A model generated the notes under the pieces. It was not told the origin of the DNA. It made no database searches and saw only the letters and a list, made by a program, of their open reading frames with translations. Position numbers and translations under genes: made by a program. Positions 1 to 39,564 of a DNA stretch of 39,564 nucleotides are shown here, piece after piece (position 1 is the stretch's first letter; every line of letters starts with the position of its first letter). The DNA comes from Planctomycetota bacterium (GTDB lineage Bacteria; Planctomycetota; Planctomycetia; JALXBF01): the NCBI GenBank assembly GCA_026991575.1, contig JALXBF010000162.1, positions 1 to 39,564 of the forward strand. Reading direction: 5' to 3'.

Positions 1-452
1 CGCCAGGCACCGATGTGCGTGTCTATGGGGCGTTGGCGCTAGAGCACGGTACTCGGCGGTTGGTCGCGGTGTGGGGGCGGCGGAAAGATGCCGCTCTGTT
101 TCGGTCGTTGCTGGCGCGACTGGATCGGGTCTACGCGAAGAGGCGTAGGATCCACGTTGTGCTGGACAACGCTGCGATTCACAAGTCGAAGGCTGTGCGT
201 GAGTATCTCCAGCAAAAAGGCGACCGATTCAAGCTCTGGTTCCTTCCGCCGTTCTGTCCTGATGCGAATCCGGTCGAACTCGAATGGCAGGCCTTTGATG
301 CGGCAGTGACGGTCTTGCACAGCCGTGTCGACATCGACACTCTGATCGCCGACGCCAGCCGTTACCTTGCCAATCGCTCCCGATCCAACACACTACGTCA
401 CCGCGATCATCCGTGGGACTGGAAACCTACTGCTTCGCCTGTGCCCTCGTAA
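1..452 (+). mobile_element. IS630-family DDE transposase, C-terminal part (truncated by the window edge)
   Basis: Frame is open back to the left edge. It carries IS630/DDE_3 motifs VYGAL, VVLDNAAIHKS and FLPPFCPDANPVE.EW. Stop TAA at 450-452. Confidence 0.85.
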
Positions 453-475
453 GCTATATGGAAAACCGTTTAGTA
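453..475. repeat. putative right end (terminal IR) of the IS630 element, with flanking TA
   Basis: AT-rich GCTATATGGAAAACCGTTTAG-TA directly after the transposase stop. IS630 elements insert at TA. The partner IR is outside the window, so the boundary is unverified. Confidence 0.35.
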
Positions 476-583: not shown

Positions 584-1651
584 TTACCGTACCTCCACTT
601 GCATCTGACGAAGCGCTTCATAGACCGCATAGCGCCGTAGCTCGGCACGCTCCGCCGCCAATGCTCTGAGTTGTCTGATCAGTCCTGGTCGACCTTCATG
701 ACCAAACAGGACCGCTCGCTCCAGATCGAGTAACATCCCCTGTAGTTCCGCGGCCAATCTCCCGGCAGGATCCAACGCCCAGTGCACGGCATAGTCGATT
801 GCTATCGCCAGGAGCAGGGCAATCCAAAACCTCCAACTGCCTCGCTTGACCACGGCGGCCAACTTCCTGGACCGCGCAGCGACTCGGGACACGACGTAGA
901 ACAATGCGCGCTCCACGACTTCTGTGGCCAGCAGCACTGCCAGTTCGCGCGTCAGCGTCTCGAGCGGAACCTGGCCGAGCCTGGCAAGCATCGCGTTCCA
1001 GCACTCCCGCAGCTCGCCCTTCACGGTTTCCAGAAGCTGCTGCTTCTGGTCGGCCGAGAGCGTCGGGCTTTCCACCTGGATGTCGAGCGCCAGCTGGACA
1101 AGCAGCTCCGCTTCTGCGTCAATCTGCGCCTGAACGACGCGTTCGATCGAGCTGTGGATCAGCAAATTGAGCTCTTCGCCGGACAGCACCTGCTGCTCGA
1201 ACTTGCGTTGCAAGTCTTCGCGTCCATACCACAAGTACCGCAGCGCCGTCCACAGCGAGACCGCCTCCTCAGCAAATGCCGGCACGCTCGCTCTGGCTTC
1301 GCGGAAGAACCGGTGGATGTCGCGGCGCGCGTCGGTGATGGCTGCCTGAACAGTCCGTTCGCACTCGGCCAGGTGGCGCTCGACCGCGTCACGCCGGATA
1401 ACGAGTGTTGGCCCGGGTGGCTCAGCGACTTCGGTGCCAGTCACTGCAGCCTGTGGCGTGGCGGGCTGAAGGGGCACCACGTTGGGGCGGGCCAGCCAGA
1501 ACAGAACCCAGCCCACGATGGCCAGAATTCCCAGCAGCACGCATATCTTCGAAGCGACACGCATCTTGACGGAGCACATCTCCTGGATCTCTGCTCGCGT
1601 CTCCCTTGTGGAGTAGTTGTTGCGACGCGTGCTCTTCTGGGCCTTGGGCAT
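584..1651 (-). CDS. hypothetical helical membrane protein (N-terminal TM and C-terminal hydrophobic segments)
   Basis: ATG at 1651 with GAGGTG RBS at 1666-1661 (ORF track starts at 1735). TM ICVLLGILAIVGWVLFWLA, a long helical body, and a second hydrophobic stretch FWIALLLAIAIDYAVHWAL. Confidence 0.75.
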   Translation of the reverse strand: MPKAQKSTRRNNYSTRETRAEIQEMCSVKMRVASKICVLLGILAIVGWVLFWLARPNVVPLQPATPQAAVTGTEVAEPPGPTLVIRRDAVERHLAECERTVQAAITDARRDIHRFFREARASVPAFAEEAVSLWTALRYLWYGREDLQRKFEQQVLSGEELNLLIHSSIERVVQAQIDAEAELLVQLALDIQVESPTLSADQKQQLLETVKGELRECWNAMLARLGQVPLETLTRELAVLLATEVVERALFYVVSRVAARSRKLAAVVKRGSWRFWIALLLAIAIDYAVHWALDPAGRLAAELQGMLLDLERAVLFGHEGRPGLIRQLRALAAERAELRRYAVYEALRQMQVEVR

Positions 1652-2098
1652 ACGGTTGCTCACCTCTTGACCTCGCCTGCCGGCAACCCCCGTCTTCCAG
1701 TGATACGGCCACGCGAGCGGAATCCTGACAAGCATCGCCTGACGTGCTGGCCCCCGTACGGGCTGAGCCGCTTACTCGCCGACCGCTGACCTCGTGCTCA
1801 GACGAAGCAAACGTTACGCAGGTGGCGAGCGGACGCGGGGCCGGAGGCGAGCGCCTCGGTAGATGACCGAGCCCAACCCTCCCGGCAAGACCGCCACGTG
1901 GGACGATCGGAAGACGGGCTACCTGGCATCGGTCTGCCGAAGAGCAGTCGCTGCGTGCCGGTCCCGCGGTGAGCAGGTGTCTGCAAGCGGATCAGAACGG
2001 CATTTCGGTCAGCGCGTGGTGTGTCCGACCGGTCTTCAAGCCGGCCCAACAGCAAGTGTCCGCGGTCGACTCGTGTGGCCGTGACCGCCGCCTGCGGC

Positions 2099-3598
2099 CT
2101 AGAAGAACTTCTCCGGCAGGCTTTCCACGAGCTGAGTTGCTTTCGATCCGCTGACGGTCACCGTTACGGTCCTGCCGCTGCCGGAGATGTAAGTCGCATA
2201 AGAGACGTCCCTGAGGCCGGCGGCGTGCCGCCTGAGCATTACCTCGACGCGTTGCCTGGCCACGTCTCTCGGCACACCGTCGGGGACAGCGGCCACGATC
2301 ACGTAATGCGTGCCCAAATCTACGATACACGTTTCCCAGCCGTTCGCACGATGCAGCTCCTGGAACCACTCAAGGATCCTCACCTTGCGGTCGCTCGACG
2401 TGTAGGGGCTCAGCTGACGGCCTGCGGTTGTCCTCGGCTGGCAAAAGCCTGGAAGAGCGTGCATCGATTGCCAGTGACGCAACGCCGCATCGACCCGCCT
2501 GGCAACGTCGGTCAGATTGGTGAGCCCCAGGAAACGGGCGAGGTTCTCGCAAAGGCAGCAAAAATCGCGGGCGTCCAGCACATCGAGGCTACGCGAGCGT
2601 AGCAGGCTCTTTTCCACGTCCGGAATCACTCGGTTTGGGCGCACGAACAGGTACTTCGCTGCCAGACCGCCCAGTTCCCGCCGCGTTGCATCCGCCTGGC
2701 GGTACTCTTCCGAAATGGGCCGCTCCTTGCTGACGAGCTTACAGTCAATGATGTGGACTCTGCCATTGCAGTTGACGACGATGTCCACCTCCTGATCCAC
2801 GCGGCCTTGCCTGGACCGCTTGACATTGGTCGCGATCTGGCTGCTGGGATTCTTCAGACCAAGCTGGCGGATGCAGGCGGCCAGGAACATCTCAAAAAGG
2901 AACCCGGGCTGCTTGGATGGACGCTGGCCAGCTTGTCGAAAAGCGACCGTCCAGATGTCTTCCTCCGGGCTTTGCAGGTCTGCTCTTGCCGGCAAGTGCC
3001 GGGCGATCTCGTCAACGGGCAGGTCCGGCACATCCTCGCCATACTCGATCACAGCGCCGTCGCCGGCCCAAAGAGCTTCGATCAACGTCCGCACGGGAAC
3101 GGAGTCGGTGATGGAGCGGGGCGGACTCCACGGCACCGCGCGGATTGCCCGGCCGTCTTCGGCTCGCTCAAGGACATACCACGTGCCACTCAGCTCACCG
3201 TAGACGGTAAAGGTGTTCGGCTCGCCTACGAAGCGCAAGATACCGGCCGTCATCAGCTTGGTGCCACCGGTTGCATTGAGCAGCCAGGTTGCGTTGGCCT
3301 GGCTCTTGAGCCATCGACCGACGCAACGCGTGACGTCGACAGGTTGCATGCCCCCTTGACGAAGCTCTGCGGTGACACCAAAGTGCTCACGTGCGATGCG
3401 TGCCAGTGCCCGCGCCGGCTGCGCCGAGCGACGTTCGTCGTCGGTGTGGTAGATGTAGACCCGTTCGAGCCAGGCATACGGCAGCTCGGTTCCGAAGAAG
3501 CACATCGAGGCAATGTTCGGCCAAAGCTGCTCGCTGGCAAGCACCACGAGCCTAACGGGGCCGCGGACGCTATGGAGGGCTTGCACAGGGGTCGTCAT
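2099..3598 (-). CDS. CARF-domain / PD-(D/E)xK nuclease, Card1/Can2 (DUF1887)-like, with C-terminal extension
   Basis: CARF motifs LVVLASEQLWPN (aa 17-28) and LNATGGTKLM (aa 107-116). Nuclease motifs GFLFE (E236), QEVDIV (E270/D272), IIDCK (D285/K287) and LGG (309-311). GGAAGG RBS-like sequence upstream. Confidence 0.8.
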   Translation of the reverse strand: MTTPVQALHSVRGPVRLVVLASEQLWPNIASMCFFGTELPYAWLERVYIYHTDDERRSAQPARALARIAREHFGVTAELRQGGMQPVDVTRCVGRWLKSQANATWLLNATGGTKLMTAGILRFVGEPNTFTVYGELSGTWYVLERAEDGRAIRAVPWSPPRSITDSVPVRTLIEALWAGDGAVIEYGEDVPDLPVDEIARHLPARADLQSPEEDIWTVAFRQAGQRPSKQPGFLFEMFLAACIRQLGLKNPSSQIATNVKRSRQGRVDQEVDIVVNCNGRVHIIDCKLVSKERPISEEYRQADATRRELGGLAAKYLFVRPNRVIPDVEKSLLRSRSLDVLDARDFCCLCENLARFLGLTNLTDVARRVDAALRHWQSMHALPGFCQPRTTAGRQLSPYTSSDRKVRILEWFQELHRANGWETCIVDLGTHYVIVAAVPDGVPRDVARQRVEVMLRRHAAGLRDVSYATYISGSGRTVTVTVSGSKATQLVESLPEKFF

Positions 3599-3950
3599 GG
3601 ATCACTTTCCCTTCCGCTGCACACCGACGGTTGCGCACTACGCTTGGAGTTGGGTTCCGTCTGTGCGAGTTTTCGGAGCCACGGCCGCGGCCGTCGTCTA
3701 CAGGCATCCCCGTGCCGCCGGTGCCGTTGCTCTCCAGGACGCCTACCAGTCTAGCCTGTGCCGGTGGCGAACCACCAAGCCGCGCAGAGCCGAGTCGGTT
3801 CCTTTTGTGTATGCCCACCGCTGCTGCGACCGCGGGCCTGAGCGCAGGCTTTCGCCGTCCGCTGCAACAGGGGAGTAGCCGCTGGAGTCCTTAGCAAGCG
3901 TGACCGGGGCGATGCTGCGGGCGCCGCCAGGAGAACTGTGGTCTGCTAAC

Positions 3951-5384
3951 CTAAGCCAGTACCTCACGCACAACCCGGCCGCCGTCGACCGTGGCGCGTT
4001 CGTCACGCCCGTTTAGCAGGAAAGTTACCTTGCGATGGTCCAGGCCGAGCAGGTACATGATCGTTGCGTGCAGGTCGTGGACGTGTACCGGGTTCTCGAC
4101 AGCGTACAGACCGATCTCGTCGGTGGCCCCCACGACGTGACCCCCGCGTACTCCACCGCCGGCGAGCCACACGGTGAAGCCGTACGGGTTATGGTCGCGG
4201 CCGTTGCCCTTTTCACTCATGGGTGTCCGACCGAATTCACCCCCCCAGATGATCAGCGTCTCCTCTAGCAGGCCGCGTCGTTCCAGGTCCGTTAGCAGTG
4301 CGGCGATCGGTCGGTCGCACGAGCGGCAGCGGGCGGAGTGGTTGGCTTCCAGGTTAGAGTGTGCATCCCACCTGCTGCCCGAGCCGCAGTACAGTTGCAC
4401 GAAGCGAACGCCCCGCTCGACCAGCCGTCGAGCCAGCAGGCAGTTGCGTCCAAACGCAGCGGTGGCCGGATTGTCGACGCCGTACAGTTCGAGCGTCTCG
4501 CGCGTCTCGCGGCTGAGGTCAACGGCCTCCGGAGCAGCCGCCTGCATCCGGTATGCTAGCTCGTAGCTACGGATCCTCGCCTCCAGCAGCGTGTCGTCGC
4601 CGCGGCGCGCGAGATGCTCCTCGTTCACCGCTCGCAGGAAATCGAGCTGCGATCGGACCCGCCGACGGCTAACGCCCGCCGGGGGATTCAAGTACAGGAT
4701 CGGTGACCCGCTCGGGCGTAGCCTCGTGCCCTGGTAGCTCGCAGGAAGGAAGCCGGCACCCCAGTTCTTGGTTCCACCGGGCGGATCGGCACCGTCCAGC
4801 AGCACGACGAACGCGGGCAGGTTCTCGTTCTCGGTACCCAGCCCATAGCTGACCCAGGCACCCAGACTGGGGCGGCCCGGCAGGACGGCGCCCGTGTTCA
4901 TCTGCGACACGCTGCCGACGTGGTTCAAGCCATTAGCCCAGCAGGAACGGATGACGCAGAGCTTGTCCGCGTGCTGCGAAAGGCACGGGAACCAGTCCGA
5001 GATCTCGATGCCGCTTTCACCACACTTGCGGAACGTGCGCCGACTGGCCATCAGCTTGTTGTTCGACACCCCCATCGGCGTGATCGGCACCTTGAAGCTG
5101 GCCGGCAGTTTCTGACCGTCCAGTTTGGCCAACGTCGGTTTCGGATCGAAGGTGTCCAGGTGACTTGGGCCGCCATCCATGAACAGCCAGATCACCGCGC
5201 GGGCCCGGGGACGCACGTGCGGTAGCCGCACGTCGGCTCCAACGTCGCGGGCTAGCAGATCGGCCAGGGCCATGGCGCCAAAGCCCGACCCGGCGCGCAG
5301 CAGAAACTCACGTCGGCTGAAAACCGGTACGCGGTGTGGCGGATGGCTCGAAGACCGGTCGGTGAACAAAGGACCGTCGCTCAT
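3951..5384 (-). CDS. DUF1501 domain protein (planctomycete, Tat-like signal)
   Basis: SRREFL twin-arginine motif. Family motifs IWLFMDGGPSHLDTFDPKP, ARRLVERGVRFVQL, WGGEFGRTP and GRDHNP. Confidence 0.92.
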   Translation of the reverse strand: MSDGPLFTDRSSSHPPHRVPVFSRREFLLRAGSGFGAMALADLLARDVGADVRLPHVRPRARAVIWLFMDGGPSHLDTFDPKPTLAKLDGQKLPASFKVPITPMGVSNNKLMASRRTFRKCGESGIEISDWFPCLSQHADKLCVIRSCWANGLNHVGSVSQMNTGAVLPGRPSLGAWVSYGLGTENENLPAFVVLLDGADPPGGTKNWGAGFLPASYQGTRLRPSGSPILYLNPPAGVSRRRVRSQLDFLRAVNEEHLARRGDDTLLEARIRSYELAYRMQAAAPEAVDLSRETRETLELYGVDNPATAAFGRNCLLARRLVERGVRFVQLYCGSGSRWDAHSNLEANHSARCRSCDRPIAALLTDLERRGLLEETLIIWGGEFGRTPMSEKGNGRDHNPYGFTVWLAGGGVRGGHVVGATDEIGLYAVENPVHVHDLHATIMYLLGLDHRKVTFLLNGRDERATVDGGRVVREVLA

Positions 5385-5426: not shown

Positions 5427-7715
5427 TCAGTCAATGAACACGAACTCATTGGCGTTCAGTAACGCCAGGCAGAAATCTACCCACGCCGCGGCCGTCGCCG
5501 GCTCAATTCCGTCGATGCCCCCGTCTGGGCCAACGTACGGGACGAGTTTGCCGTTTCCATCCGCCGACTCGGCCGCGATCAATTCCCTTTGCCGCGCAAT
5601 GAACGCCAGCGCACGGCTCAGCTCTGCACGATCCGGCGGCCGGCCGAACGCCAGCCAGTAGGCTCGCTCGACGGCTGCGCCATCGCAAGAGCCTGCCGCG
5701 CGGTGCTGGAGGATCCGCCGCGCAAAATCCGCGGCGCACCGCCGTGCAAACCGGCTGTTGAGCAGATAGTGGGCCTGGGGGGGCGTGATGGTCACCGAGC
5801 GCCGCGTGCACGGTTCGTTGGCGTCCGGGAAGTCGAACGCTTCCAACAGCGGGTGGCGGAGGTTACGCCGTACCAGCAGGTAGACCGAACGACGCTGCCG
5901 CTGGGCCCTTTCAGCGGTCGGCTTCCAGGCGTACGTCTGGCTGATTCCCTCCGGCAGTTCCGGCCGCACCGCAGGGCCGAACATTTGCAGGTTCAACGTG
6001 CCGGCGACCGCAAGCATCGCATCCCGGATCGCTTCGCCAGTGAGCCGCTTGCGGTTCATCCGCCACAGGAGCCGGTTATCAGGGTCGGTCTGCCGGTTGG
6101 TCTCCGATGCCGCCTTGAGCCGTGGTATGGAGCTGCGGCGATAGGTGGCGGAGGTGACGATCAGCCGCAGGGTTCGTTTGATGTTCCAGCCGGAGTCGAT
6201 GAAGTAGTGCGCGAGCCAGTCGAGAAGCTCCGGGTGGGAAGGGGGGCTAGCTCGGCTACCGAAGTCTTCGGAGGTTTCCACCAGGCCCCGCCCGAACAGA
6301 TGCTGCCAGAGCCGGTTTACGAACACCCGGGCTGTCAGGGGATTGTCAGCGGAGGCAATCCACCGCGCCAGCGCCGTTCTGCGACCGCTGGAGCGGTAGT
6401 CTTCAAAGACCACCGGGTGGATCTCCGGCTGATGCGTGCCGCCCGCCAGTGCGCGCGGAAAAGCCGGCTCGACTGCCCGCAACGGTGCTCGCGCATTGCC
6501 GCGGGCCAGCACAAAGCAGACAGGCGGCGTGCTGACTTCGCGCACCGTCATCATCTCTGGCAGTTCGGGCGGCTTCAGGTGGGCGAATGCGTCCAGTCTT
6601 GCCTTCAACTTCTCCCACCGCTTGCGATCCTGCTTGTTCATCCGGCCTACCAAGTCGGCGGTGCTGATCTCCAGTTGGTTTCGAGCCAACGCGTACAGTT
6701 GCCGCTGCACAGGGGTGCGCTTCTCGGGTGGGGTGTCGATGGCCTTCTGAACGTCCGGGGGAAACTTGGCCCGAGCGTCCTCGAAGTGCCGCTGCCGGTA
6801 GGGCGCCTCGATGGCAGCCATCTGGCGGCGAATGGCAGCCGTGGCCGCTTCCCATGCCGCCTGCCGTGCACGATATCGCCGCAGCTCCTCGACAGACCCG
6901 ACCAACCGGTCCTCCGGCTGCACGGCGGCAAAAAAGGCTTGGAACGCATAGTAGTCCTCTTGCGTCAACGGGTCGTACTTGTGCTCATGGCACCGGGCGC
7001 ACTTCAGCGTCAACCCCAGGAACGCAGTTGCTGTCGTATCGGTAAGCTCGTTCAGAATGTCCTGCCGCCGACGCACCAGATCACGCTGGTTGTCCTCAAA
7101 CGGCCAGTGCCTCAGATACGCCGTGGCCGCGACGGCGTCACGGTCGTACGGGGCCACTTCATCGCCGGCGAGCTGCAACAGCACGAACTGGTCGTAGGGC
7201 AGGTTCGCGTTGAATGCCCGGATGACCCAGTCGCGGTAGCGGTATGCCAAAGGACGCAGCGCGTCCCGTTTGAAACCATCGCTATCGGCGTAGCGCACAA
7301 CGTCGAGCCAGTGCCGCGCCCATTTCTCGCCGAAGCGCGGCGAAGCCAGCAGACGATCCACAAGCCGTTCGTACCGATCTGGCCGACGGTCGCGCAGGAA
7401 CGCCCGCACGACCGCCGGGTCGGGGGGTAGACCGATGAGGTCAAAGTGGACGCGCCGCACGAGCACCACAGCGTCGGCTTCGCCCCATGGCTTCAGCCCG
7501 GCCAGGGCCAGCCGGTAGAGGACAAAGGCATCGACCGGGTCCGACGCAGGCAGCTCAGCTCCGACCCGCGGCGGCGGTGCGACGACAACCGGTCGGAAAG
7601 CCCAGGGCAAGTTGGCCTCAGTGGTCGGCGGGGTTCCGGAAGCGCTCCGGGAACCAACCAGCCAGACGCAGACGACGGCAACCGGGACTCGCCAGGCAGT
7701 CGCACCACAGCGCAT
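5427..7715 (-). CDS. DUF1549/DUF1553 (PSCyt2/PSD1) domain protein
   Basis: Motifs GEKWARHWLDVVRYADS, LGLTLKCARCHEHKYDP, NPLTARVFVNRLWQHLFGRGLV and PSHPELLDWLA. Lies directly upstream of the DUF1501 gene, the usual pairing. Start uncertain: ATG 7715 gives a signal-like N-terminus, while the ORF extends to 7811. Confidence 0.9.
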   Translation of the reverse strand: MRCGATAWRVPVAVVCVWLVGSRSASGTPPTTEANLPWAFRPVVVAPPPRVGAELPASDPVDAFVLYRLALAGLKPWGEADAVVLVRRVHFDLIGLPPDPAVVRAFLRDRRPDRYERLVDRLLASPRFGEKWARHWLDVVRYADSDGFKRDALRPLAYRYRDWVIRAFNANLPYDQFVLLQLAGDEVAPYDRDAVAATAYLRHWPFEDNQRDLVRRRQDILNELTDTTATAFLGLTLKCARCHEHKYDPLTQEDYYAFQAFFAAVQPEDRLVGSVEELRRYRARQAAWEAATAAIRRQMAAIEAPYRQRHFEDARAKFPPDVQKAIDTPPEKRTPVQRQLYALARNQLEISTADLVGRMNKQDRKRWEKLKARLDAFAHLKPPELPEMMTVREVSTPPVCFVLARGNARAPLRAVEPAFPRALAGGTHQPEIHPVVFEDYRSSGRRTALARWIASADNPLTARVFVNRLWQHLFGRGLVETSEDFGSRASPPSHPELLDWLAHYFIDSGWNIKRTLRLIVTSATYRRSSIPRLKAASETNRQTDPDNRLLWRMNRKRLTGEAIRDAMLAVAGTLNLQMFGPAVRPELPEGISQTYAWKPTAERAQRQRRSVYLLVRRNLRHPLLEAFDFPDANEPCTRRSVTITPPQAHYLLNSRFARRCAADFARRILQHRAAGSCDGAAVERAYWLAFGRPPDRAELSRALAFIARQRELIAAESADGNGKLVPYVGPDGGIDGIEPATAAAWVDFCLALLNANEFVFID

Positions 7716-8134
7716 GATCACGTCCAAGGGCTGAGCGTTCCGTTCCGGCGTCGCGTAAGCGAGGACTCGACGAGGTCGATCACGAACGCCTGCAGCGTCG
7801 CGAAGCATCAAGCCAGCCTTATGTTAGGATCTGACCGCGATGGATGCAATTCGATTCGCACGCCCGGTCGCTGCGGGCGGTCGAGTGGTTGACGGCGGTC
7901 GTACGCCGGAGCATCTTGATCGGCCGGTTGCGTGGTCGGGAACGGTCCCGCTCCGCCCGGTCGTGCCGTCCGGCGCATTCGGCGTGGTTGCTCGGAAGGG
8001 GCCTCAGAAAGCGATTTGGCCTGGTGGTGTGGGGCATCGATGCGCGGGCCGCGCGCCAGCGTCGCGACTCGTGGTAATCGACCTGCTGTCGGCGTGGGGG
8101 TACCGCTGCAGACGGGCAGCGACTCGGCCGACGC

Positions 8135-8182
8135 AAAAAAAATCCCGACCGTCGGGCCGGGGGGAAACCCAAACGGTCGGGA
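8135..8182 (-). terminator. intrinsic terminator
   Basis: Perfect 10-bp inverted repeat TCCCGACCGT (8143-8152) / ACGGTCGGGA (8173-8182), followed on the minus strand by an 8-U tract (A8 at 8135-8142). Confidence 0.75.
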
Positions 8183-8311
8183 CGACCACCTGTCCCCTCC
8201 GTGGGTTCGCTACAGGACTGCTTGCTGTCAGCGCTAGCAGAGTCTCGGGTGAGGTTCGCTGAGCACTTCGGTTTTGGAGTCTGGTGTCGGTGGCTTTCCT
8301 CTAGGTGACAC
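8135..8311 (-). ncRNA. candidate small RNA or regulatory leader (~175 nt)
   Basis: Bounded by a sigma54-like promoter (8337-8323) and the terminator above. No convincing ORF inside. Internal repeat AGCGAACC twice. Confidence 0.4.
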
Positions 8312-8322
8312 CTCCGACTCGA

Positions 8323-8337
8323 ACAAACAGCGTGCCA
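8323..8337 (-). promoter_or_regulatory. sigma54 (-24/-12)-like promoter
   Basis: Minus strand TGGCACG-CTGT-TTGT versus consensus TGGCACG-N4-TTGC. Spacing is exact, with one mismatch at the -12 C. Confidence 0.5.
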
Positions 8338-8720
8338 TGGGATCCAAACGACAGCGACGAGATGGCGCAACTGGCCACTAACCAGCGTAAGCCGTGAGAC
8401 TTGAGAACAGCAACCGGCGGGCAACCGCCGGCTCCAGCATCCGCCAGCCACAGTGAACTGTTGCCCCACGGCAACAGCGCCAGGCTGCGCGGGGGCAGCG
8501 CACGTTGTGATCGGGCAACGCCAGCGGTAGCTGCGGTGGTCTGTACCATCCTGCTGCGGACTCTCGTTGCATTCTCCGGGCACCGCTCCTACTAGTCGTG
8601 CAATCGGCGCAATGGTTCACGCTGCACCAGCTACTTTCTCCCGTCCAGCCGCCGCGAACTGGCTCCCGATCCGTTTCGTCCTTAGATGTGTACGATGGCT
8701 CGGTCCTTCCTCGGAGAAGC

Positions 8721-10292
8721 ATGCTGATGAAGGTGCGTGGCTTATGCGGCCTTGGCTTGCTGCTTGCTGTTCTGGCAGGCTGTTCGGTCAGCGTTGACGA
8801 TGCCGTTCCCACGCAGGGCACGGCCGACAGGGCGCCGGCGGAGTCCGGTTCGCGCAGCGGGGTCAACCCTGAATCGCTGCTGGAGAGCGCCATGGAGGTG
8901 CTGCGCTCCACGCGGCCCGGCCCGGACACCTACCATCTAGCCGCGGACCGGTTGAACCACTACTTTCGCACGCGACCGGCGGCCGAGCGGGCCCAGTTCG
9001 CGTTGCCGGAGGTTGTCGAACGGGACCTGAACGCACGGCTGGTGCCGGAGCTCATGGATCGGGTCCGGAGGGCGGAATTCGATGCCGAGGATGCGATCTA
9101 CGTGGCCGGTCTGGTGATGCTGAAGGCCGTTGCGGATCGTGTGGCGGCTGACGAGCACGATGCACTAACCATCGCCACTCGCTTGTTCGACTGGGTCATC
9201 CGCAGCTTGCCCCAATCCCTGCTGGATGCCCGCCGAGAGGTTCCGATTCCTCTGTTGCATGCGCTGGTCGGTGGTCACGCGCGCGGGGGCGAACGAGCGT
9301 GGGCGTTCATCGAACTCCTGCACCAGCAGTACATCGATGCGTGCGTGTTGGCCGTGGAGGTCAAGGGGCAGGAAGGGCAGAGCCGGTGGGTGCCGTGGTG
9401 CGTCGGGGTGGTTGTCGACGAGTCGCTGTACCTGTTCGATCCATGGCGGCTGACTGTGCTGGCCGACCGCGATGGCAGACCGCTGACGCTGGAAGCGGTC
9501 CGCAAAGACCCTGCGGTGCTGGAGCGGCTGTCGGAGGCGATGGGCGGAAACTATCCGGCAACCACTGGCAACATCCAGCGAGTGCTGGCCTGGGTCGGAG
9601 GGCGACCTGAATGCTGGGCACCACGCATGAGACACCTGGAATCGCGGCTAGCGGGCCAGTACCAGGTGGTCCTCACAATGGATCTGCCCAAACTCGTCAG
9701 CAAGATCCGTGCGGCAGGAGGAGAGGCGATCGGCCAGATTGAGCTTTGGCCGCTGCCGAACGACGCTGTGGTCGCAGCACGCACTCGCGAAGGTCAACGA
9801 CTGATCGCACGGCTGCTCGGCCCGCTGGCACTGCCGGCCGTGCAGGAGGCCAGGCTTCTGCACTTGTACGGTGAGCTGGCTCGGGCCCGCGACCTCTACC
9901 TGGAGCTTCGCGAGCCGAAGGTTCGGTTGCCGGAGCTGCCGCCGGAGGCCGAGGCTTTGAGGCAGACAGTGCGCGAGTATGCGACATTCTTTATGGGACA
10001 GCTTAAAGCGGACGAAGGTGACTGGAAGGTCGCGCACAGTTGGTTCACGCGATCGTACCTGAAAAAGTACGGCGATGGCGGCATCTGGTCTGGGGCTGCG
10101 TACCTGGCAGCCGGCCTGTGTCTGGAGCACCTGGACCGACTGGACGAAGCCGTTCAGTGGTACGAGCAGCCGCAGGTGCGCAAGCTCGTGCCAGAGCTCG
10201 CCGCGCGCGCGGCGATATTGAAGGCCCGCCAGGAGTCGGCGCGACAGCCGTCAGATGACGAGACGAAGGCGAACAGACCCTCAAGCGATTGA
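8721..10292 (+). CDS. lipoprotein with transglutaminase-like core and C-terminal TPR-like helices
   Basis: GGAGA RBS at 8713-8717, ATG 8721, lipobox LAGC. Central pattern LFDWV...AFIELL...WCVGV...YLFDP. C-terminal A..AAGLCLEHL....EAVQWY helices. Confidence 0.75.
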   Translation: MLMKVRGLCGLGLLLAVLAGCSVSVDDAVPTQGTADRAPAESGSRSGVNPESLLESAMEVLRSTRPGPDTYHLAADRLNHYFRTRPAAERAQFALPEVVERDLNARLVPELMDRVRRAEFDAEDAIYVAGLVMLKAVADRVAADEHDALTIATRLFDWVIRSLPQSLLDARREVPIPLLHALVGGHARGGERAWAFIELLHQQYIDACVLAVEVKGQEGQSRWVPWCVGVVVDESLYLFDPWRLTVLADRDGRPLTLEAVRKDPAVLERLSEAMGGNYPATTGNIQRVLAWVGGRPECWAPRMRHLESRLAGQYQVVLTMDLPKLVSKIRAAGGEAIGQIELWPLPNDAVVAARTREGQRLIARLLGPLALPAVQEARLLHLYGELARARDLYLELREPKVRLPELPPEAEALRQTVREYATFFMGQLKADEGDWKVAHSWFTRSYLKKYGDGGIWSGAAYLAAGLCLEHLDRLDEAVQWYEQPQVRKLVPELAARAAILKARQESARQPSDDETKANRPSSD

Positions 10293-39054: not shown

Positions 39055-39307
39055 CGACAGAATCACCTCCTTTCGGGGAAGCGTTCAGGTAGAGCCTGGC
39101 CTGAGTTGCTCACCGTTCGTCCTAAATCATAGTGAGTCGTTCATTGGCCTCCGTTCGGGTAGCTGCATTCGGCGGGCCATTCGAGCGCCCCGCGCTGTCT
39201 ATGCAGGCCAGGAAGGACTCGATTGAGCGGAACGAGTGTGATCGAAGTCGTTTGTTGGTTTGTGCCGTTCGATCGGACCGGCTTGCGTTGTTCAACCGCT
39301 GCTCTGA

Positions 39308-39420
39308 CGCGAACGCCTCCGCGCGGGTTTCGCTTCGCCTCCGTTTGGGCGATGGTCTCGCCCGCGTTGACGGGTTGGTTTCGGCGGCGTTGGGAGCTGG
39401 TTTCGCCTGCGTCGGAGGAC
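39308..39420. repeat. degenerate 22-23-bp tandem repeats (3 clear + 2 weak copies)
   Basis: TGGTCTCGCCCGCGTTG (39353), TGGTTTCGGCGGCGTTG (39376), TGGTTTCGCCTGCGTCG (39398). Weaker copies at 39330 and 39308 share CGCCTCCG. Confidence 0.6.
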
Positions 39421-39448
39421 CGTTCAACTCGCCAGCTACCGTGAACTC

Positions 39449-39479
39449 GCGGGAGGGGGGCTTTACGTCCCCCTCCCGC
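39449..39479. repeat. GC-rich inverted repeat / hairpin
   Basis: GCGGGAGGGGG (39449-39459) / CCCCCTCCCGC (39469-39479), a perfect 11-bp stem. Confidence 0.8.
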
Positions 39480-39564
39480 TGTGTTGATGGGTAGCGCGGG
39501 CAATACCAGTTTTGTTTTTTTCTCCCTCCCATTTGAAGAATCCCCCGACGCCGCCGACCTCGTC

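Follow-up and report, generated by a model that had tools for sequence, protein, structure and literature searches.

A divergent Card1/Can2-family nuclease encoded away from cas genes in a planctomycete, and its probable activation in trans by type III Cas10 of the same genome

The DNA analysed here (the window; 39,564 nucleotides) is contig JALXBF010000162.1 of the Planctomycetota bacterium assembly GCA_026991575.1, called C162 below, and it carries at positions 2099..3598 of the minus strand a gene of the Card1/Can2 family. The gene is one intact open reading frame (ORF) of 499 codons, and the open frame, Pfam, PADLOC, profile comparison with the PDB, AlphaFold2 and Foldseek together describe its product as a CARF domain, a PD-(D/E)xK nuclease domain and an extra C-terminal domain. 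The Rossmann-like CARF domain is N-terminal (about residues 13-160; 3119..3562, minus strand), as placed by the Pfam family CARF_Card1 (residues 17-133) and by alignment to Card1. It contains the S-x-Q...P-N loop as S22-E-Q24-L-W-P27-N28 (residues 22-28) and the T-G-G-T-K loop within N108-A-T-G-G-T-K114-L-M116 (residues 108-116), as well as the predicted dimer interface. The nuclease domain lies C-terminal to it (about residues 229-360; 2519..2914, minus strand; Pfam Card1_endonuc, residues 236-320, and alignment to SthCan2) and has the catalytic acidic residues and the lysine, namely E236, E270-V-D272 and D285-C-K287. The remaining part (about residues 400-499; 2102..2401, minus strand) is modelled by AlphaFold2 as an alpha-beta-beta-alpha-beta-beta-alpha domain, which is not in the solved Card1/Can2 chains.

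In Pfam searches with the single sequence, CARF_Card1 scores 22.4 bits (curated cut-off 24.6) and Card1_endonuc 22.6 bits (curated cut-off 26.4), with the two matches in the expected order along the protein. In the six-frame search of the genome, CARF_Card1 reaches 24.8 bits, which is above the cut-off. PADLOC assigns the protein to CARF_PDDEXK (8.9e-14), and its "Csx1" model, which joins a CARF domain and a nuclease, matches across residues 17-332 (6.6e-13), while the NCBIfam search of this protein returned no match. A word-indexed search found seven relatives with 37-42% identity and lengths of 380-503 aa, one of them named Gemmataceae. When cluster representatives were searched exhaustively, 263 matched at E <= 1e-3, 198 at E <= 1e-10 and 71 at E <= 1e-30; they are mostly 470-520 aa long, and the matches cover chiefly residues 14-375.

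For the family alignment, 74 rows of 468-526 aa were picked by hand among the 150 matches listed, with shorter and longer sequences excluded. Seven residues are invariant in these rows (P27, G112, K114, Y133, E236, E270 and D272), and ten more are at least 90% conserved (S22, Q24, S58, P61, N108, G111, D285, K287, R320 and P321). The window protein agrees with the consensus at all columns conserved to at least 85%, except E298 (Q in the family) and T423 (W in the family). The SEQxxPN and NxTGGTKxM motifs and the apparently intact E...ExD...DxK nuclease, which a sequence-only reading of this DNA had pointed out, are thus present and conserved. In the closest relative (P0003, 491 aa), a threonine replaces the lysine of the catalytic motif corresponding to K287 ("VVDCTL"), and from its sequence this copy is possibly inactive or altered.

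Compared with the PDB, the 74-row profile matches Can2 (7BDV, 6.1e-17), Card1 (6WXW, 1e-15), Cdn1 (8Z4I, 3.1e-12) and VC1899 (1XMX, 5e-7). The profile alignment pairs the SEQ and GGTK motifs of the family with LVSEQTIPN and NITGGTKIM of Card1, the residue comparisons with Card1 being based on this PDB alignment and on the entry title "Card1(D294N)". It also places E270 and D272 on "NELDVV" of SthCan2, i.e. on E276 and D278, and PMC7969007 reports the E276A/D278A variant of SthCan2 to be inactive. The same source describes Can2 as a cA4 (cyclic tetra-adenylate)-activated, Mn-dependent DNA nickase and RNase. The CARF domain, proposed earlier from motifs, is therefore recovered by profile comparison, and Foldseek agrees at about 1e-18.

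The AlphaFold2 model built with the 74-row alignment is confident, with a predicted local distance difference test (pLDDT) of 92.6 and a predicted template modelling score (pTM) of 0.86. Searched against the PDB with Foldseek, it matches first Card1 (6XL1, E 1.9e-18) and Can2 (7BDV, 1.2e-17), with template modelling scores (TM) normalised by target of 0.60-0.67. The other top entries are Cdn1 (9U49), VC1899, two further Can2 proteins and Can1. All of the top entries have a probability of 1.00, a TM by target of 0.53-0.67 and an identity of 12-18%.

The protein is also predicted to form a homodimer, with an interface score (ipSAE) of 0.53 vs 0.01 for the best control, a contact agreement of at least 76% between runs and a partner pLDDT of at least 79. 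The score passes the mark of the method; of proteins solved as pairs of one chain, 20 of 30 had reached it, and of those solved as single chains, 1 of 23. No contact is predicted outside the CARF domain; the residues involved are 85-90, 114-122 and 133-154, and the two K114 face each other. Because dimers of Card1 and Can2 are already solved, the predicted pair may reflect likeness to them and may not be independent evidence.

The solved Card1/Can2 chains have 341-437 residues; the window protein exceeds them by about 100-130 residues, as do most members of its family. In the full model, a helical linker (residues 364-399) leads to the alpha-beta-beta-alpha-beta-beta-alpha unit (residues 408-493; pLDDT 90-96 over residues 420-490). 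The topology is the same in a second model (pLDDT 83.5), limited to residues 360-499 and built from 11 locus-encoded sequences, and the length of the domain is kept in 10 locus-encoded relatives. For this domain, the best Foldseek match in the PDB has an E of only 8e-3, to poxvirus/RNA polymerase and ACT-like small sandwiches, which is not convincing. In VIA-align, run against 48,161 chains, small two-layer sandwiches made up a flat list whose best Z was 6.9 (root-mean-square deviation 3.4 A over 75 residues), the level of a common arrangement and, for this model, not of a convincing relative. The ESM Atlas search with the domain returned no usable match. A 380-aa member of the family (P0009, at locus L022) is without the C-terminal domain.

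Since the window is the whole contig, the 36 kb upstream of the nuclease gene are all the linked sequence on that side, and the 2-kb downstream side terminates within a copy of an IS630-family insertion sequence (IS). Pfam found no cas10, csm/cmr or CD-NTase (cGAS/DncV-like nucleotidyltransferase) gene among 26 ORFs of the window, and PADLOC gave merely generic kinase and methyltransferase similarities on 27 window ORFs. The genome-wide Cas10 searches had no match on C162, and a k-mer scan for CRISPR (short palindromic repeats that are clustered and regularly interspaced) found no array on it. The earlier statement that none of these is recognisable in the window is borne out. Its companion, that no signal-generating enzyme is nearby, holds for the contig and fails for the genome (191 contigs, 4.96 Mb, 97.8% complete), in which the whole-genome search for cas10 returned three Cas10, one of type III-B and two of type III-D, all with the GGDD motif kept.

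The type III-B module is on contig C183 (C183:4111-11421; locus L009), where Cmr2 (TIGR02577) is above cut-off and PADLOC annotates Cas10/Cmr2 (891 aa), Cmr3, Cmr4, Cmr5 and a Cmr6-Cmr1 fusion. Its flanks are HypD and an alginate-export porin, and neither a CRISPR array nor cas6 nor an ancillary effector lies within 20 kb of it. Its Cas10 has no Pfam match over the first ~220 residues. The type III-D module on contig C27 is ordered as Cas10d (552 aa), a Cas7/Csx10 fusion (801 aa), a double Cas7 (602 aa), Csx19 (223 aa) and a large Cas7 (804 aa). A second III-D variant on contig C32 (C32:4971-13150; L010/L038) contains Cas10d (549 aa), Cas7, Csx10, Csm2, a 147-aa ORF, two Cas7, Csx19 and Cas7. 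A 1573-aa helicase-like ORF stands before this module, and a 524-aa unknown ORF and a 1366-aa MkoA-like ORF stand after it; the region may be a defence island.

Four CRISPR arrays on contigs C47, C96, C182 and C187 share one common 37-nt repeat in the k-mer scan, with 7, 8, 16 and 20 repeat copies counted by exact-word chains. In the orientation of C182 the repeat ends in ATTGAAAC, which we take to be the kind of 8-nt handle used by type III complexes. The array on C96 (8 repeats) adjoins genes for Cas1 (380 aa) and for a reverse transcriptase of 616 aa, encoded separately (L013:10572-14788), an adaptation module assisted by reverse transcriptase (RT) that is far from all three effector modules, and Cas6 is encoded on C164 and C19. 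Moreover, contig C115 encodes a 462-aa CARF-Lon protein with the CARF domain at its C-terminus (L017:1453-2841, minus strand; PADLOC CARF_LON 2.3e-81), which from sequence appears to be a second effector sensing cyclic oligoadenylate (cOA), also unlinked to cas genes. The search for a SMODS CD-NTase found none in this genome, and its control matched in 4 of 14 genomes. Genome searches with SAVED (PF18145) and Cas_APE2256 (PF09651) had no match, and they are uninformative, as the control matched in no genome.

The neighbourhoods of relatives were surveyed by scanning one genome per species with an 8-row alignment, which retrieved 19 loci, mostly from Planctomycetota (Gemmatales, Thermogutta, Pirellulaceae) and Verrucomicrobiota. 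These loci come from 17 distinct genomes, since L019 and L022 are in the same metagenome-assembled genome (MAG) as L018; this planctomycetotal MAG thus holds three nuclease paralogues. The Cas10 palm2 domain is above cut-off in 15 of the 17 carrier genomes vs 62 of 251 genomes of a phylum sample, a comparison in which kin are not independent and the 17 genomes span several phyla. The phylum sample itself is too sparse for a co-occurrence test, as the family occurs in 2 of 251 genomes (E <= 1e-10), one of which is the present genome. In seven of the 17 genomes (those of L018, L021, L023, L027, L031, L033 and L034), Cas10 is on the same contig within ~10 kb of the nuclease gene, and in eight it is on other contigs or 270 kb away.

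PADLOC annotation was made for 49 ORFs at six of the 19 loci, and all six proved to be type III-D or III-B operons. Four of them (L018, L021, L033 and L034) are type III-D operons that close with the homologue, placed directly behind the large Cas7. At L027 it ends a Cmr operon, and at L023 it is directly upstream of Cmr1-Cas10-Cmr3-Cmr4-Cmr5-Cmr6, with a Csx1 after that operon. A location in or beside a type III cas operon is therefore found in the relatives and not on the 39.6-kb contig studied here. The nuclease homologues at two type III-D-linked loci, L031 (9914-11490) and L034 (9941-11519), each appear as two consecutive ORFs (216+306 aa and 158+404 aa), which may come from a frameshift, a sequencing error or decay. 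The type III-B locus L027, from a member of Gemmatimonadota, has a 673-aa ORF with no PADLOC match between Cmr6 and the CARF nuclease (7971-9992, plus strand), which could be a further ancillary gene.

The gene order of the C27 operon is that of L021 and L018, and its proteins are 44-54% identical to theirs, a level similar to the 41-42% identity between the window nuclease and the L018 and L021 homologues. After the large Cas7 of C27 there is a 534-bp gap followed by convergent genes and no nuclease, and the single nuclease copy of the genome is the one on C162. We also built a maximum-likelihood tree of 13 proteins, excluding those of L022, L028, L030, L035 and L036 as short or weak and those of L031 and L034 as split. 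In it the window protein falls into a clade with L018 (III-D) and L019 (support 100/100), and L021 (III-D) is the next branch (91/89). The simplest reading of these sequence comparisons is that the nuclease was formerly part of a C27-type III-D operon and is now located elsewhere.

From the above, the gene is most likely that of a divergent Card1/Can2 ancillary nuclease which was displaced from its operon and is activated in trans by type III Cas10 of the same genome. The family is established by profile and fold, the catalytic and CARF motifs are intact, the genome has type III machinery (Cas10 with GGDD, CRISPR arrays, RT-Cas1 and Cas6), and the relatives are linked to type III operons. Activation by a distant type III system, one of two options given by the sequence-only reading, is thus well supported. 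Binding of target RNA by a type III-D complex, and perhaps also by the III-B complex, would turn on the Cas10 cyclase. The resulting cOA, most likely cA4, would diffuse and bind the single pocket that the two CARF domains of the predicted homodimer would form. Ligand binding would then switch on the PD-(D/E)xK sites (E236, E270, D272, D285 and K287), and the nuclease, if its gene is expressed as we suppose, would cleave DNA and/or RNA without specificity, using a divalent metal. The C27 III-D module would be the most probable source of the signal, because that type of operon normally ends with this nuclease family, and the III-B module of C183 and the III-D module of C32 would be further possible sources. 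This scheme follows what is established for Can2/Card1 in PMC7969007 and PMC11229360, the latter of which treats Can1 and Can2 as cA4-activated effectors.

Several points weigh against this explanation. In this genome the nuclease gene has no physical linkage to cas genes; a DUF1553/DUF1501 pair is upstream of it, and the rest of the contig is housekeeping. Adjacency to a cas operon is usual for such effectors, although it is not needed for a diffusible signal. Both single-sequence Pfam scores are below their curated cut-offs, and identity to the solved Card1/Can2 chains is just 12-18%. Two of the 17 carrier genomes show no Cas10 match, but both are MAGs, in which absence is not shown. The C-terminal domain of ~100 residues, absent from the characterised members, could alter regulation or substrate. 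The specificity for the ligand is not predictable either, and cA4 is not certain, because the relative Cdn1, by analogy, binds cA3, cA4 and cA6 and is described in PMC12825302 as a single-stranded RNA nuclease activated by cA4 and cA6.

The detachment of the gene might also be an artefact of assembly, the nuclease being an ordinary ancillary gene in cis, with a type III locus or the remainder of a defence island just past the IS630 element. This element occupies 1..474 (plus strand) and is the 3' part of an IS630-family copy, with the C-terminus of a DDE_3 transposase (ORF 3-452; Pfam DDE_3, 5.7e-21), and the contig breaks inside it, only the last 474 bp of the element being on C162. A copy with 95% identity is at C179:13232-13705, and the similarity stops at window position 474. 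The genome is in 191 contigs, and two of its four CRISPR arrays are on short contigs of 7-10 kb, which indicates that repeats and IS elements fragmented the assembly. However, all three Cas10 modules are on contigs with non-IS flanks on both sides, and none of those ends matches the IS. The contig ends of the assembly were searched for the other half of the element, i.e. for the contig that continues past the break, and none carries the missing left part of a near-identical copy. The orientation does not fit either: the nuclease gene points to the IS, with housekeeping genes before it, whereas in the relatives it follows cas genes on the same strand. With this evidence, a linked operon behind the element is quite improbable.

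It is quite improbable that the protein is a stand-alone effector of an undescribed system which responds to a nucleotide signal other than that of type III (from another cyclase or a phage) or is constitutively active. There is no signalling enzyme on the contig, in eight of the 17 carrier genomes Cas10 is only on other contigs or at 270 kb, with no match in two, and the extra C-terminal domain is without an assigned role, all of which would suit such an effector. Yet the same genome has three GGDD Cas10, every annotated locus of the family (6 of 6) is a type III operon, the CARF motifs match those of the cA4-binding Card1 and Can2, and the SMODS search already mentioned found no CD-NTase in the genome. 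A sensor of another signal, the second option of the sequence-only reading, thus finds no support, and its view of the gene as the best candidate here for an undescribed system is likewise not supported, the family being a regular member of type III operons. That the gene is a decaying remnant, left after rearrangement and no longer expressed or functional, is highly improbable: it is away from its usual operon and beside an IS fragment, and the split homologues at L031 and L034 indicate that decay occurs in the family, but here the 499-codon frame is intact, all invariant and nearly all conserved residues are kept, the departures from columns conserved to at least 85% are just E298 and T423, and the model is confident throughout.

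Activation in trans by type III Cas10 therefore being preferred, the protein can be compared with the known effectors. It shares with Can2/Card1 (DUF1887; 7BDV, 6WXW/6XL1, 8Q3Z, 8BAO) the order of an N-terminal CARF domain and a PD-(D/E)xK domain, the fold, the SEQxxPN and TGGTK motifs, the catalytic E, ExD and (D/E)xK residues, the CARF-mediated homodimer (predicted for the window protein) and the presence of relatives in type III operons. It differs from them in the low structure-based identity and the borderline Pfam scores, in the conserved alpha/beta domain that makes it ~100-130 residues longer than chains of 341-437, in the distribution of its subfamily, whose members found here come mainly from Planctomycetota and Verrucomicrobiota, for the most part with type III-D, and in this copy not being next to cas genes. 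Cdn1 of the Psychrobacter lutiphocae type III-B system (8Z4I/9U49) has the same two-domain architecture and fold, but its chains (387-405 residues) are without the extra C-terminal domain. Can1 (6SCE) has related nuclease and CARF folds (Foldseek E 2.6e-11); it is a monomer with two CARF domains, as a fused dimer, in the description of PMC7969007, whereas for the window protein, with its one CARF domain, a dimer is predicted. VC1899 of Vibrio cholerae (1XMX; DUF1887, role unknown) has the same fold (E 7.7e-15, TM by target 0.65) and, unlike the window protein, no C-terminal extension.

A divergent, C-terminally extended Can2/Card1 subfamily that is typical of planctomycetal type III-D operons would be modestly new. 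Literature searches on Can2, Card1, CARF and type III-D, and on type III and Cas10 in Planctomycetes, gave no description of the extended subfamily, and the supplements of PMC11229360, outside that scope, may list such effectors. A wider proposal is possible, though on balance unlikely: the ~490-aa proteins (198 clusters at E <= 1e-10, mostly ~470-520 aa) might be an undescribed Can2/Card1 subfamily that is the standard terminal gene of planctomycetal and verrucomicrobial III-D operons, its C-terminal domain might add a property, and the displaced copy here might be a shared effector for three Cas10 complexes. If this were true, the added property could be, for example, docking to the III-D complex, affinity for a particular nucleic acid, or an additional regulatory input. 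The extended subfamily would be a sensible choice for biochemistry, given that signalling is what type III-D systems mainly rely on; HD domains are present in only 3% of III-D Cas10 by the figure given in PMC11229360.

The case is chiefly a corrective, in that a CARF effector orphaned within 40 kb is not evidence of new signalling until the whole genome has been searched. In addition, the type III arsenal of this planctomycete (one III-B and two III-D modules, four arrays, RT-Cas1 and a pair of unlinked CARF effectors) is dispersed, and such scattering of effectors and signal generators fits a diffusible second messenger.

As for the close surroundings of the nuclease gene, two genes are upstream on the same strand, encoding a DUF1501 protein (3951-5384, minus strand; Pfam) and a DUF1549/DUF1553 protein (5427-7811, minus strand; Pfam). 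A 352-bp intergenic region (3599..3950, minus strand) separates the DUF1501 gene from the nuclease gene; it has a purine-rich run ahead of the ATG and presumably holds the nuclease gene's own promoter. A scan for the sigma-70 consensus around the nuclease gene found no site, and terminator-like sites there are at chance level.

Downstream of the nuclease gene, a 383-aa ORF with hydrophobic stretches (584..1735, minus strand) has no Pfam, PADLOC or NCBIfam match. It has a single paralogue in the genome, 49-51% identical, at C27:76676-77638 (minus strand), about 1.3 kb upstream of the C27 Cas10d. Both copies in this genome therefore flank type III components. Distant relatives of the protein occur in 8 of 60 related genomes; seven of these loci were annotated with Pfam, and the eighth is on a 3.3-kb contig. 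An association of the family with type III systems was rejected, as none of the seven loci (0 of 7) around distant homologues has Cas domains in Pfam. These loci hold integrases, ParB, ArdC, an AbiE pair and a type IV secretion system coupling protein, and from such gene content the family looks associated with mobile elements and not with CRISPR. Together with the IS630 fragment, this neighbour suggests that the nuclease gene is at the edge of a mobile or rearranged segment, and its displacement would have brought it to a site beside a gene family of mobile-element context and the IS630 element.

Among the other ORFs of C162, Pfam identifies DAHP synthase, a phosphate porin, gluconolactonase, a histidine kinase and a methyltransferase, and further a flavin adenine dinucleotide (FAD) oxidoreductase, glucose-6-phosphate dehydrogenase, a Ser/Thr kinase and cytochrome-c proteins. 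At the far end of the contig, the last ~285 bases (39279-39564) are repeated at 82-89% identity on contig C117 and twice on C27. They overlap a 136-aa ORF (39122-39532, minus strand), and either a short dispersed repeat or the conserved end of a gene may account for them.

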